From contig JAQGDQ010001243.1 in assembly GCA_030141605.1 (NCBI GenBank), forward strand, positions 1 through 52,612: 52,612 nt of DNA, given 5' to 3'. A program made the position numbers and the translations under genes. Origin of the DNA: Tubiluchus corallicola (lineage: Eukaryota > Animalia > Priapulida). Positions 1 through 7,914 of this stretch are shown here, piece by piece. The notes beneath the pieces are model-generated. The model did no database searches. It was not told the origin of the DNA and saw only the letters and a program-made list of their open reading frames with translations. How positions within the stretch are numbered: position 1 is the stretch's first letter; the number at the start of each line of letters is the position of its first letter.

Positions 1-576
1 CTCTCTCCTCCTCTCACCCATCTCTCTCTTCTCTCTCTCTCTCACTCTCTCTCCTCTCTCACTCACTCACTCTCACTCTCTCACTCTCTCTCTCTCTCTC
101 TCTCTCTCTCTCTCTCTCTCTCTCTCTCTCTCTCTCTCTCTCTCTGTCTCTCTCTTTCTCTCTTTCTCTCTCTCTCTCTCTCTCTTTCTCTCCCCTCCCT
201 CACTCTCTTTTTCTCTCTCTCTGTCTCTTTCTTTCTCTCTCTCTCTGTCTCTTTCTTTCTCTCTCTCTCCCTTTGTCTCTCTTTTTCTCTTTCTCTTTCT
301 CTCCCCTCCCTCTCTCTCACTCTCTCTCTCTCTCTCTCTCTCTATCTCTCTCTCTCTGTCTCTCTTTCTCTCCCCTCCATCTCTCTCTCTCTCTCTCTTT
401 CTCTCTCTCTCTCTCTCTCTCTCTCTCTCTGTCTCTCTCCCTCTCTCTCTCTCTCTCTCTCTCTCTCTCTCTCTCTCTCTCTCTCTCTCTCTCTCTCTCT
501 CTCTCTCTCTCTCTCTCTCTCTCTCTCTCTCTCTCTCTCTCTCTCTCTCTCTCTCTCTCTCTCTCTCTCTCTCTCT
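1..576. repeat. (CT)n microsatellite; outer part of the left inverted arm of the AGXT exon 7-8 cassette
   Basis: Near-pure CT dinucleotide run from the window start. Confidence 0.98.
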
Positions 577-629
577 CGTAAATTCGTAAAAAGACTTACT
601 GTATGTTTTGTGAGAAAAATGAAACTGAA
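577..629 (+). repeat. Left inverted-repeat arm (pairs with 2104-2158)
   Basis: cgtaaattcgtaaaaagacttactgtatgttttgt... aligns with the reverse complement of 2104-2158 (cgtaaattgcgtaaaaagacttattgtagtttttgt...). Confidence 0.9.
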
Positions 630-640
630 CAAATACAAAC

Positions 641-710
641 CTCTTCAGCCAGTCTGGCAAGTCCTTCACGGAGAGCGTAGACGCTGCTAATTGGAGCCGT
701 GTGATGGTAC
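641..710 (-). CDS. AGXT: Alanine-glyoxylate aminotransferase, exon equivalent to human exon 8 (inverted relative to downstream exons)
   Basis: Minus strand AG|g tac cat cac...gaa gag|GT; 70 bp; translates YHHTAPISSVYALREGLARLAEE, matching the AGXT YHHT motif; ends in phase 0, compatible with 3513. Confidence 0.95.
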
Positions 711-1019
711 CTTCACAAACAAACACTTCCTTAGATTTTGCCATTGTGCTATAGATTTGTTTAGCATATCTTTGTTAGTAATAAAGTATGAAAGGTAAAC
801 TAAATGATCCAACACTGTGGCTAGTTTTGAAACTAGGGGAAGATGCAACCAATAAGTTTGCATTGTAGCACGAAAAAAGTTTAAAGGAAAAATCAAGCCT
901 TCTGGGAAGTTGACCTTATTTCAAAGTTTGCATATAATACGAAAAGGATTTAGTAATAATAGTGTGATAATCATTTTGAAGCTGCAATCATTTCACGGTT
1001 AGGCACTCTTGTTTTGAAA

Positions 1020-1862
1020 GGCCGTTCTTCCACCAATGACGTAATTCATCGGCTGAAGAAAAACTGCAGAATGGCCATTCTTCCACCAATGACGTCATTC
1101 ATCGGCTGAAGAAAAACTGCAGAATGGCCATTCTTCCACCAATGACGTTATTCATCGGCTGAAGAAAAACTGCAGACTGGCCTTTGTTCCACCAATGACA
1201 TCATTCATCGGCTAAAGAAAAACAGCAGAATGGCCTTTCTTCCACCAATGACATCATTCATCGGCTGAAGAACAACTACAGAATGGCCATTCTTCCACCA
1301 ATGACGCCATTTATCGGCTGAAGAAAAACTACAGACTGGCCTTTGTTCCACCAATGACGCCATTCATCGGCTGAAGAAAAACTGCAGAATGGCCATTCTT
1401 CCACCAATGACGTCATTCATCGGCTGAAGAAAAACTGCAGAATGGCCATTCTTCCACCAATGATGTCATTCATCGGCCGAACAAAAACTGCAGAACGGCC
1501 ATTCTTCCACCAATGACGTCATTCATCGGCTGAAGTAAAACTGCAGAACGGCCATTCTTCCACCAATGATGTCATTCATCGGCCAAACAAAAACTGCAGA
1601 ATGGCCATTCTTCCACCAATGACGTCATTCATCGGCTGAAGTAAAACTGCAGAACGGCCATTCTTCCACCAAATGATGTCATTCATCGGCTGAAGAAAAA
1701 CTGCAGAATGGCCGTTCTTCCACCAATGACGTCATTCATTGGCTGAAGAAAAACTGCAGAATGGCCATTCTTCCACCAATGACGTCATTCATTGGCTGAA
1801 GAAAAACTGCAGAATGGCCATTCTTCCACCAATGACGTCATTCATCAGCTGAAGAAAAACTG
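1020..1862. repeat. 53-bp minisatellite, ~16 copies, each with CCAAT overlapping a TGACGTCA-type palindrome (AGXT intron 7)
   Basis: Unit ggccattcttccaccaatgacgtcattcatcggctgaagaaaaactgcagaat; period 53 (1020, 1073, ...). Confidence 0.95.
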
Positions 1863-1990
1863 CTGTCTAATTCTATAAAAGGTGTAATGAATTTTTATAG
1901 ACAGTTTTTTGGCAATTTCGTTTTGTATTTTTCTACGTTTAGGTGATAACAGTAAAATAAATGACTTGTCCTTTAAATGAAATCACGAAC

Positions 1991-2086
1991 CTTCTTGGTC
2001 CATCATCGCAACCCCAGTAATTACTCAACTCGTTGATGTCAAAGTAGTATGACCGAATCTTCGTCTTCCTTGATCTGATCTTCTCC
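1991..2086 (-). CDS. AGXT: Alanine-glyoxylate aminotransferase, exon equivalent to human exon 7 (inverted relative to downstream exons)
   Basis: Minus strand ttttgtttAG|g gag aag...aga ag|GT; 96 bp; EKIRSRKTKIRSYYFDINELSNYWGCDDGPR resembles AGXT [27 protein letters not shown]; phase 2 joins 710. Confidence 0.95.
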
Positions 2087-2103
2087 CTAAACAAAAGCTG
2101 TCA

Positions 2104-5313: not shown

Positions 5314-5871
5314 GTGAATTTTCTGAACTGTATTCTCTTTGTATTCGTGCGAGGCAGGCAGAGTGGACCAGAGAATTGGCTTCAGTAGGGAATTTCAACT
5401 TAAGTTTACCATACAGTATTTTTTCAGTTAATCTAGTAATGTTCGTTCCCTTAGAAAGATGGCTTCCACGATGGTTTAGTAGTTATTCAACATTTAATGC
5501 AATTTTTGTCAGTCAGTCAGTCAGTCAGTGCTTTCCCATTTTGTCAAATTCAAATTTCATTTTAAAAAAAGTTCGAGTTCCATTAAAATTTAATCAACTG
5601 ATTGTTAATTGTCGAAAGCGAATTCTTAATATGACCAGCACCCGCTTAATCAAAGACGTGACTTTTATTCAAACTTAAACATCTAAACATCTGCAACGTT
5701 TCGAATAGTTTTATTTCCAATCACACGACAGTCTACCTAATAAAAATATAATGTGTAAAAACTCTGAAAATCCGCTTTGTGAAAACTAAAGAAAACGATT
5801 TTTAAATTGTCAACTTACATATGATGCAGCAAGCTTGACTACACATGCAAGCGTAAATTCATTCTCTAACT

Positions 5872-6371
5872 CAGGGGTGTGCAAATTGCGGCCCGCGGGT
5901 CCCTTGCTGCCCGCCGAGAGAATTTGTGTGGCCCGCGAAGAGATTTGTCAACCTAAATGAAAGTGCGGCCCGGGCGATTAATTGAGTGTATCCAGCTGAA
6001 GTCAGTGCCACGATCCCGAAGATAGTGCGGGTAGTTTTTTCTACTAGATCGGATGCCATTTACCCTTACAAGACGGTTGTAGCTTAATGTCACTGTACTA
6101 CACAGACTGTGTGATACACATTACTAATATGCATTGTAGTGAAATTACCACTATCTGTCCTCAAAGTAGAAATATATGGTTTGTAATATAAATTTTAATA
6201 ATTTCTAAAATGGTTTCTTGAGTGTAGTAGTAATGATGTACGCAAGTCGGATGCAAAAAATCGTTATTAGGTCTTTCTGTACTTGGCTCCTTGATCAAAC
6301 TGCACGTGGCCCGCAGGAATTGCGGGAAAGTTTAATGTGACCCGGCTAGTCAGATAATTTGCACACCCCTG
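5872..6371. mobile_element. Non-autonomous hAT (Charlie-like) MITE
   Basis: Perfect 16-bp TIR caggggtgtgcaaatt/aatttgcacacccctg; perfect 8-bp TSD ctctaact (5864-5871, 6372-6379); ggcccg subterminal repeats. Confidence 0.93.
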
Positions 6372-6770
6372 CTCTAACTTATCACTGTGCATGGCAATCA
6401 GGGAAATCTTTACATAAAACAAGTGCAACACAATAACCGAGCAACTACAAGGACCGGCTATAAATTATGTTGAACAAATGTAGGGTAATATTCTTTCCAA
6501 CATTCACCATTTTATCATGCAAACTGTACGTTTTATAATTTAGCATTTGTTTTGTTTGTGGATTTTTGTATTTTTAGATAAATTATTTGTATTTAGATGC
6601 ATTTTTGTGTGAACATGACCATGTTATGGTCAAAATATTGTCTTTGAATGAAAGCTATGTCATTGCTCCAATAGGTGGTGCTGGCTGTTATTATATTCAT
6701 TTGAAGAGTTTTATAATTCAGAAGTGAGAGATTTATTTTAGTTGCCTATTCTAAGATAAGACGGATATTA

Positions 6771-6980
6771 TGTCATTAGTAGTATGTATGCTTTGTGTAT
6801 TGTCATTAGTAGTATGTATTATTTGTGTATTGTCATTAGTTGTATGTATTCTTTGTGTATTGTCATTAGTAGTATGTATTCTTTGTGTATTGTCATTAGT
6901 AGTATGCATTCTTTGTGTATTGTCATTAGTAGTATGTATTCTTTGTGTATTGTCATTAGTAGTATGTATCCTTCGTGTGT
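6771..6980. repeat. 30-bp minisatellite, 7 copies
   Basis: Unit tgtcattagtagtatgtattctttgtgtat. Confidence 0.95.
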
Positions 6981-7084
6981 TGGTCGCGCAAGGAGGTTAA
7001 CCAAATGTAAGGTTTGCTAATGCAATCTTACGTGCTGCACTGATGCAAACATGAAGGAATCATACTACTGTTGCCATTATGCGG

Positions 7085-7725
7085 GATACTGAATAACTAG
7101 GAAAGCTTAATTGCCGACTTACGGACGATTTTGCTATGCAAACACACAATATTATAGCATATCGATATTTTTTCAACTCTCTGGTGTCAGTTTGTTTACT
7201 TAACCCTTTCATACCCGTTGTATCCCGTGGGATGCGAGAAAATTTTCTGCCTTTAAAATTAATAAAATTTTAAAACTGACAGTCATTTGATCTGTTAATA
7301 GTTATTTTGATTTAAGCCAATAACAATAGACTAAAAATGGTGATAAAATGGCAAACTAGAAAATCTACATAGCATAAAAAACTGCGCAAGGTACAGTACT
7401 TTAGAGACGACTTTGTACAGATCAGCATAGCATGCATACTAAATGTCTTAAATACTTTAAAAAATTATCAGCAGTTGCAAAATGAAGCACATTTTATGCT
7501 TCCATTGAATCCCAATGTATCCCGTGGGATACAGGCTATATTTAGCACACGGGCACAAGTAGAAAAAAATAATTATTGTGTAAACAAGATGGACATACTG
7601 AACAAAAGTACCAAGCCAAAAAAATTTTTCTTATTAAAAAATTAATTTGGGACTGAAAGGGTTAAGTGGGTGCAACAGTAGGAATAAATCTCGTATCGTT
7701 ACGAAACACACAGCAGAGTAGTAAA
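7085..7725 (-). repeat. Inverted copy of 3805-3985, interrupted by the piggyBac-like MITE
   Basis: 7085-7203 and 7662-7725 each match the reverse complement of adjacent parts of 3805-3985, meeting at a single TTAA in the uninterrupted arm. Confidence 0.85.
7204..7661 (-). mobile_element. piggyBac-like MITE (copy 1 of 4; opposite orientation to the others)
   Basis: TTAA|CCCTTTCA...TGAAAGGG|TTAA; internal near-palindromes gtatcccgtgggatac; homologous to copies at 35171, 36715 and 41913. Confidence 0.92.
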
Positions 7726-7760
7726 CACGAATGAAACATACTACTCTTGCTATTATGCAG

Positions 7761-7914
7761 GTACAGGCTGGAGATTTCCGGAGGGCTCGGACCGACAGCG
7801 GGTAAGATTTGGAGGATTGGACTGATGGGCTACAACTGCACCGAAGACAACGTCCGTTTGATCGTCCGCGTTCTGGGCGAAGCTCTGAGTCATCAGCGAT
7901 CGTCCAAGTTGTAG
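7761..7914 (+). CDS. AGXT: Alanine-glyoxylate aminotransferase, last coding exon, with C-terminal PTS1 (SKL)
   Basis: tgcAG|g tac agg ctg gag...; YRLEISGGLGPTAGKIWRIGLMGYNCTEDNVRLIVRVLGEALSHQRSSKL*; matches AGXT EIxGGLGPxxGKxxRIGLxG; phase 2 joins 5313. Confidence 0.96.

Follow-up and report, generated by a model that had tools for sequence, protein, structure and literature searches.

AGXT exons 7 and 8 lie reversed between CT/GA arrays, probably through a local misjoin or library chimera in an otherwise ordinary gene

In C. elegans eri-6/7, an inverted part of the gene is rescued by trans-splicing (about 80% of wild strains), and the reaction is reported to require direct repeats of ~930 bp (10.1101/2024.01.15.575659). 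In Drosophila mod(mdg4), trans-splicing involves alternative 3′ exons and is described as being driven by a TSA motif that binds U1 (PMC4387717). Intragenic inversions form a described class (PMC13484493), and human inversions between inverted repeats were found to be often recurrent (11 of 16; PMC3961182). Among the 1092 candidate inversions in InvFEST, 85 were validated and 51 were false, some of the latter through assembly errors (PMC3965118). On the technical side, HiFi dropouts are reported to accompany long A/G- or T/C-rich sequence, and HiCanu scores overlaps without counting differences inside microsatellites (PMC7545148); during T2T polishing, most of the 218 low-coverage HiFi loci were GA-rich (10.1101/2021.07.02.450803).

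Here, we analyzed an AGXT locus with exons on both strands at the start of a 52.6-kb window, the window being the whole stretch of DNA under study (52,612 nucleotides). Its features are as follows.

1..577, plus strand: imperfect (CT)n array; the window begins inside it, and the 137 nt adjoining the arm are pure
578..603, plus strand: left-arm unique core; 25 of 27 columns equal 2157-2131, with an exact 14-nt common run at 585-598
641..710, minus strand: AGXT exon 8, 70 nt, with AG acceptor and GT donor; spliced to exon 7 in a contig of run X6
711..1990, minus strand: intron 7, 1280 nt; contains a minisatellite (16 copies of 53 bp) at 1016-1863 and, at ~880-965, a fragment of a high-copy repeat
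1991..2086, minus strand: AGXT exon 7, 96 nt, matching human AGT residues 229-258
2131..2157, minus strand: right-arm unique core at the end of intron 6, placed by alignment to the left core
2158..2907, plus strand: imperfect (GA)n array, 750 nt, with pure runs of 93, 110, 69, and 43 nt; putative misjoin site
3513..3608, plus strand: AGXT exon 9, 96 nt, from splice ends and tblastn
5231..5313, plus strand: AGXT exon 10, 83 nt, from splice ends and tblastn
7761..7914, plus strand: AGXT exon 11, coding to the stop and ending in SKL, which we take to be a C-terminal peroxisomal targeting type

The split that the first-pass annotation had described, with exons 7 and 8 on the minus strand and exons 9 to 11 on the plus strand, was verified in the sequence for all coordinates and lengths. 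An AG acceptor is present in all five exons and a GT donor in all four internal ones, and joining in the order 7-8-9-10-11 yielded a single open frame of 165 amino acids closed by SKL and a stop, confirming the GT-AG ends and matching phases that had been listed. Using exon 11 as a query, we obtained 52 candidate homologs, of which 42 passed; no protein in this search exceeded 84% identity, indicating that it returned no full-length protein of the source animal. The joined 165 amino acids aligned with all 42 homologs along the whole fragment, and the alignments with the best full-length homologs were gap-free (65% identity over 162 aa for P0003 and 70% over 147 aa for P0016). The homologs carry PF00266 (class V aminotransferase), and a Pfam search with the five AGXT exons taken singly gave no match, single exons being too short. 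The translation of exon 7 (2086-1991) matched human AGT residues 229-258 with an E value of 6e-7. In a tree combining the 165 amino acids with the last 175 aa of each of 27 homologs out of the 42, the nearest sequence was that of Priapulus (85/95, not starred), and the source animal was left unplaced.

Twenty-six of the 42 homologs, those of 380-459 aa, served as tblastn queries against both strands of the whole 52.6-kb window. Each of the five exon sites was matched by 25 or 26 of the 26 queries, with best E values of at most 6e-8, versus no more than 7 of 26 at any other place, where the best E value was 0.079. Exons 1 to 6, and with them the N-terminal half and the PLP-binding lysine, were found on neither strand of the window by this search; we assume that these exons lie leftward on the plus strand.

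Six sequencing runs (X1 to X6) were consulted, all in the form of assembled short-word contigs, none of which spans an array and none of which is recorded as RNA. The X6 contig carries exon 7 joined to exon 8 without an intron, in diverged sequence: over the 87 letters compared, it has 8 differences from the window (4/57 in exon 8 and 4/30 in exon 7), and the four differences among the 30 exon 7 letters shown are, by eye, all third-position and synonymous. Judged from their letters, exons 7 and 8 appear to be under constraint. In the deep DNA run X1, one contig (157 letters, depth 96) matched 591-691 without a single difference, whereas the remaining 56 letters do not fall on 578-590, the departure lying inside the 14-nt run common to both arms. 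The window's left edge differs from what this X1 contig carries. Gaps in contig cover (692-862 in X1, and exon 8 in X2 and X3) carry no weight because the filter drops records, and under the same filter it is uninformative that exon 8 is covered by just one contig of X1 and that the contig of X6 stops at 656, before the exon 8-exon 9 joint. The small or zero word shares of runs X3, X4, X5, and X6 were likewise left out of the evidence.

The divergence of the X6 contig might reflect a paralog instead of a diverged lineage, and two head-to-head AGXT copies, or a partial inverted duplicate, would place exons 7 and 8 in a minus-strand copy and exons 9 to 11 in a plus-strand one. We regard this as very improbable: the 50 kb to the right contain no minus-strand exons 1 to 6 by tblastn, in agreement with the first-pass annotation, the same search revealed no plus-strand copies of exons 7 and 8 between 2908 and exon 9, and the two sets of exons exactly complete one another, their phases matching.

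The exons had been thought to lie between inverted arms of more than 600 bp ending 10 to 20 nt from the splice sites. Instead, the arms consist of two CT/GA arrays that are interrupted differently, together with a unique core of 27 columns, and true homology stops ~37 and 44 nt from the exons. The inverted core (578-603 versus 2157-2131) matches at 25 of 27 columns, a score reached by none of 5000 shuffles; this score is 54, versus 24 for the next best among 55 array-flank pairs. The inner arm portions toward the splice sites match at chance level (1904 of 5000 shuffles reach it). Left and right arrays have no 16-mer with interruptions in common and are complementary only as simple sequence, the best stretch being 203 nt at 96%. 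Interruptions by G-runs occur three times in the left array and three times in the near-right array, versus none in the far-right part and none in four other arrays. The core and these common interruptions point to a real past duplication, possibly the substrate or scar of real inversions. Two other origins of the arms were rejected: no further close copy of the core exists in the window, as a dispersed element family would have, and the arrays differ, as those of a fresh fold-back copy would not.

The (GA)n array at 2158-2907 is the window's sole junction between minus-strand and plus-strand exons. We reasoned that exons 7 and 8 were probably reversed by a local misjoin or a library chimera in an otherwise ordinary AGXT gene, with a probability of roughly 0.6. 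The 1.6-kb piece between the long CT/GA arrays would have been joined back to front in assembly or library preparation: reads may thin out or end within the arrays, a pure GA run may give rise to a false overlap or, if the DNA was amplified, to a template switch, and the exon 7 end would be attached to the flank of exons 9 to 11 in place of the exon 8 end. Because position 1 falls inside the left array, no unique sequence anchors the left side, and, with that side unanchored, one wrong join would suffice. The chromosome would carry exons 1 to 11 in order, spliced normally in cis.

In line with such a join, the window starts in (CT)n and the orientation changes across (GA)n, both being A/G-rich low-complexity sequence. 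Position 1 is probably a contig end, and its place in an array would be better explained by an assembly break than by a cut at random, since GA/CT arrays elsewhere make up 1889 of the other 52,035 bases (3.6%). The pure runs, 137 nt on the left and 93, 110, and 69 nt on the right, could allow an overlap of simple sequence alone. The constrained exons, the departure of the X1 contig in the core, and the missing trans-splicing pairing described below also favor a misjoin. On the other hand, a 750-nt array is short compared with reads of 10-20 kb, and one true crossing read would fix the orientation; the core and the common G-run interruptions suggest a genuine past duplication; and the 56 letters of the X1 contig would also fit a short indel that the aligner had clipped, or another allele or animal. 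Unamplified PacBio HiFi data are reported to contain virtually no fold-back reads (PMC12870357), although the method used here may differ. From the intact exons, the first-pass annotation had concluded that the inversion is recent, reversible, or bypassed; the intactness stands, and an artefact explains the absence of decay no less well than an inversion that is reversible or bypassed.

As assembled, plus-strand RNA would skip 166 nt and terminate in exon 9 at its second codon, if the phase of exon 6 is taken from that of exon 7. A real and recent inversion, produced by recombination or template switching between (CT)n, (GA)n, and the common core on one chromosome, would thus be null, through exon 6-to-9 skipping with a frameshift, and would be carried against a working copy. 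Inverted homology is real here (the core and the 203-nt stretch), the X1 contig departs within the core as expected of another haplotype without the junction, and a recent event leaves exons intact. However, recent copying of the arrays predicts near-identity, and the two have no informative 16-mer in common; the homology is short relative to the 782 bp at 99.9% given for one human inversion (PMC3961182); and the start of the window inside an array is left unexplained. Such an allele is unlikely, if still worth serious consideration: this reading and an assembly flip, ranked second and first by the first-pass annotation, both hold up as the two best.

Whichever way the cassette lies, (CT)n stands at its left and (GA)n at its right, so a flip restores the same layout, and the piece might flip repeatedly between the arrays, with both orientations on one haplotype background or in one animal. 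We consider this improbable. The unique homology is 27 columns with two differences, the arrays are not homogenized, whereas frequent events would be expected to keep the arms similar, neither a recombinase nor a site was seen, and the X1 contig is without the left edge as assembled. In its strongest form, flipping would be an on/off inversion switch of AGXT, with cells carrying a working or a dead gene, run by simple repeats with no dedicated recombinase, and this is less credible again; the switch proposed earlier fares poorly with 27 columns of unique homology in place of 600 bp and with the X1 contig departing in the core. In the open-access literature on trans-splicing and intragenic toggling, we found no animal gene switched by flipping internal exons, which is not proof of absence.

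A real and fixed inversion could also be bypassed, the full-length mRNA arising from two trans-splicing events between plus- and minus-strand transcripts. Exons 7 and 8 are intact and look constrained, and eri-6/7 is a precedent, but we hold this to be extremely improbable. There, direct repeats make the pre-mRNAs complementary at the joint; here, because the repeats are inverted, the two intron halves at each joint have the same sense and pair weakly. The predicted duplexes needed for the trans joints are -22.7 and -35.6 kcal/mol, versus a self-fold of -356 or -336 kcal/mol for each RNA. Moreover, over both exons each transcript would be wholly antisense to the other, and two trans events would have to compete with cis skipping. 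The pieces trans-spliced in mod(mdg4) are opposite-strand terminal 3′ exons without a 5′ splice site, whereas exons 7 and 8 are internal and have GT donors; the GGT(A/G)AGT motif of the mod(mdg4) type, a strong U1 site to be sought in the last 5′ intron, was absent from both strands of 1-8350, most of intron 6 lying outside the window. The wrong geometry of the inverted repeats and the need for two trans events leave this earlier suggestion with little support.

As a side observation, a colinear gene keeping both arms would have a very stable predicted stem around exons 7 and 8 (-356 kcal/mol). Paired flanks of this layout are described in a review as promoting circular RNAs (PMC6769675), and an exon 7-8 circular RNA is a model-based prediction for such a gene.

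AGXT is a glyoxylate-detoxifying enzyme. If the reversal is an artefact, the locus is a clear example, for repeat-rich invertebrate assemblies, of GA/CT arrays flipping an exon block and breaking a gene model. A real allele would represent loss of function through an inversion mediated by microsatellites, in the gene of human primary hyperoxaluria type 1, and would be of modest interest. A major result would come only from toggling or trans-splicing, neither of which is likely.

Human AGXT has exon sizes of 96/70/96/129, the last two exons being 129 and 108 nt; here, the last intron lies elsewhere, and the final exons are 83 and 154 nt. Exon 7 of this locus covers human R233 and I244, both encoded by human exon 7 (PMC13606788). 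Like eri-6/7, the locus places a portion of a gene on the other strand, with repeats on either side and with intact exons; unlike it, the repeats are inverted rather than ~930-bp direct ones, and an internal cassette would need two joins instead of one. With mod(mdg4) it has in common that exons of one gene lie on both strands, but these exons are internal and constitutive with their own donors, and no TSA-type motif occurs in the visible part. As in known inversions between inverted repeats, inverted homology bounds the segment and exons are reversed inside a gene; the homology here comprises microsatellites and a 27-column unique core rather than long near-identical duplications, and the inversion is a putative one, read from the assembly. 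Finally, as at long-read breaks in A/G-rich repeats, long GA/CT arrays with pure runs of 93-137 nt stand at the window start and at the sole orientation-changing join, whereas the papers cited describe dropout and fragmentation rather than a flipped two-exon piece, and the platform and assembler used here may differ.

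The window carries the 3′ half of AGXT, and its exons lie on both strands:

2086-1991, minus strand: AGXT exon 7, by similarity to human AGT residues 229-258
710-641, minus strand: AGXT exon 8, splice dinucleotides and phase fit
3513-3608, plus strand: AGXT exon 9, splice dinucleotides and phase fit
5231-5313, plus strand: AGXT exon 10, splice dinucleotides and phase fit
7761-7914, plus strand: AGXT exon 11, frame ending in SKL-stop

When joined, the five exons gave 165 open codons up to the SKL-stop with compatible splice dinucleotides and phases, and the product aligned gap-free with its best homologs (best identity, 65-70%). 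These results confirmed the two-strand exon anatomy proposed in the first-pass annotation. Since R233 and I244, both within the matched human span, are reported to be encoded by human exon 7 (PMC13606788), the exon numbering is right. A tblastn search with 26 full-length homologs revealed nothing of weight beyond the five exons in the 52.6 kb, and we consider a second AGXT copy very improbable. The lineage looks invertebrate-like, and a tree of the fragment with homologs did not place it further. Two introns contain repeats: intron 7 holds a short piece of a very high-copy repeat (880-965, beginning at TTAA), for which the summed depth peaked at 65,000 in the deep DNA run X1, and intron 10 a MITE-like dispersed element of ~470 nt (7200-7665), with further copies of 94-96% identity at 35166-35635, 36713-37178, and 41909-42206.

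Six public runs, all in contig form, were listed, and four were compared with window 578-1015. A 264-letter contig from X6, a run guessed to be RNA, spans 656-712, where it differs at 4 letters, and then passes directly into exon 7, confirming the intron 7 splice; its 207 upstream letters exceed exon 7 alone. Across the 30 exon-7 letters compared, it differs from the window at 1993, 1996, 2005, and 2011; judged by eye, each of these changes sits at a third codon position and is synonymous. The X6 source is a diverged lineage or paralog, and the splice is confirmed there.

Position 1 falls within the left array, (CT)n at 1-577, and since GA/CT arrays make up just 3.6% of the remaining window, this start is likely an assembly break. 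The left side has no unique anchor; the one visible junction runs through the right array, (GA)n at 2158-2907, where a single wrong join suffices for the entire picture. With the left unanchored, the sole join in an array, and A/G-rich tracts prone to HiFi dropout, the most likely reading (probability about 0.6) is that exons 7-8 were turned round at the GA/CT arrays, either by a local misjoin or in a library chimera. HiFi coverage is described as dropping at long A/G- or T/C-rich tracts (PMC7545148; 10.1101/2021.07.02.450803) and HiCanu overlaps as ignoring microsatellite differences (PMC7545148), and a barley preprint places 99 of 147 gaps beside tandem arrays of >500 bp (10.1101/2021.11.08.467736). 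Against this reading, the right array is only 750 nt, and fold-backs are reported to be almost absent from unamplified HiFi reads (PMC12870357); this assembly's platform may differ from HiFi.

The inverted arms, put at more than 600 bp in the first-pass annotation, proved overstated. The two arrays are complementary as simple sequence only (best, 203 nt at 96%) and have no 16-mers with at least three interruptions in common. Beside them lies a unique core, 578-603 versus 2157-2131, matching in 25 of 27 columns (reached by 0 of 5000 shuffles) and scoring 54 versus 24 for the runner-up among 55 array-flank pairs, while extension to 629/2104 is at chance level (1904 of 5000 shuffles). Runs of at least four G number three in the left array; the right array has three as well, all of them in its near part, and four other arrays have none. 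Small as it is, this count hints that the left and near-right arrays share a single ancestor, whether through an old duplication or because they are two alleles of the same locus. Beyond the AGXT stop, a 40-nt direct repeat (95%; 8309-8348 and 8750-8789) lies on either side of a GA array (8352-8748); duplication of the flank may accompany the origin of GA arrays in this genome or be a consequence of them.

A 157-letter X1 contig matched 591-691 with no differences, but its other 56 letters, left of 591 by record coordinates, do not fit 578-590. The 14-nt run 585-598 is exactly common to both arms, and the left array contains a pure 137-nt run. A contig of 31-letter words with the window's letters should have 14 unique letters, meet this pure run, and end well before 56; the 56 letters being too many, the contig departs within the shared 14 nt. 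The 56 letters may represent native intron 8 or another allele; if the former, the outer 14 nt and left array of the window would be an intron 6 copy joined via template switching. Under either reading the left arm looks unlike a feature that is fixed, and this argues against a conserved switch; X1, possibly the assembly's own sample, is not independent support. Recurrent toggling of the cassette is unlikely. Inverted repeats are well known to mediate repeated inversion, but the cases described use long, nearly identical repeats (PMC3961182), and certain predicted inversions reportedly turned out to be assembly errors (PMC3965118). A real heterozygous null inversion allele ranks second, as a possible but distinctly less favored reading. 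RNA from the plus strand as assembled would pass from exon 6 to exon 9, losing 166 nt and, with the exon 6 phase as inferred, meeting a stop at the second codon, so that a real inversion would be a null allele.

Farther along the window, an exon at 23066-24178 (plus strand) encodes 12-13 near-identical 84-bp C2H2 fingers (90% matches), most variable at recognition-helix positions +6, +3, and -1 (6, 4, and 3 residues; n = 11 full-length fingers), with 3 residues also at one neighboring and one linker column, which we take to be a PRDM9-like pattern. Many C2H2 fingers are also encoded in an open frame of 484 codons (14260-15714, plus strand) that directly follows a pure 180-nt GA run, and a 99-codon frame (16774-17070, minus strand), higher in GC than its surroundings and without a Pfam match, is possibly an exon of another gene.

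Cross-strand trans-splicing, also raised at first pass, must pair the post-exon-6 half intron with the pre-exon-7 half and the post-exon-8 half with the pre-exon-9 half. Because the repeats are inverted, the halves to be joined are same-sense, and the predicted trans duplexes (-22.7 and -35.6 kcal/mol) are far weaker than the self-stems predicted within each RNA (-356 and -336 kcal/mol). This reading is poorly supported and the least probable of all; inverted same-sense copies would suit DNA recombination or a read overlap. No mod(mdg4)-type U1-binding motif was found on either strand of 1-8350, a stretch that takes in the smaller part of intron 6. In mod(mdg4), terminal exons are described as joined via a U1-binding motif (PMC4387717), and in eri-6/7, the closest real case, a single join is reported to depend on direct repeats of about 930 bp (10.1101/2024.01.15.575659), in contrast to the inverted repeats of AGXT and the two pairings that it would need.
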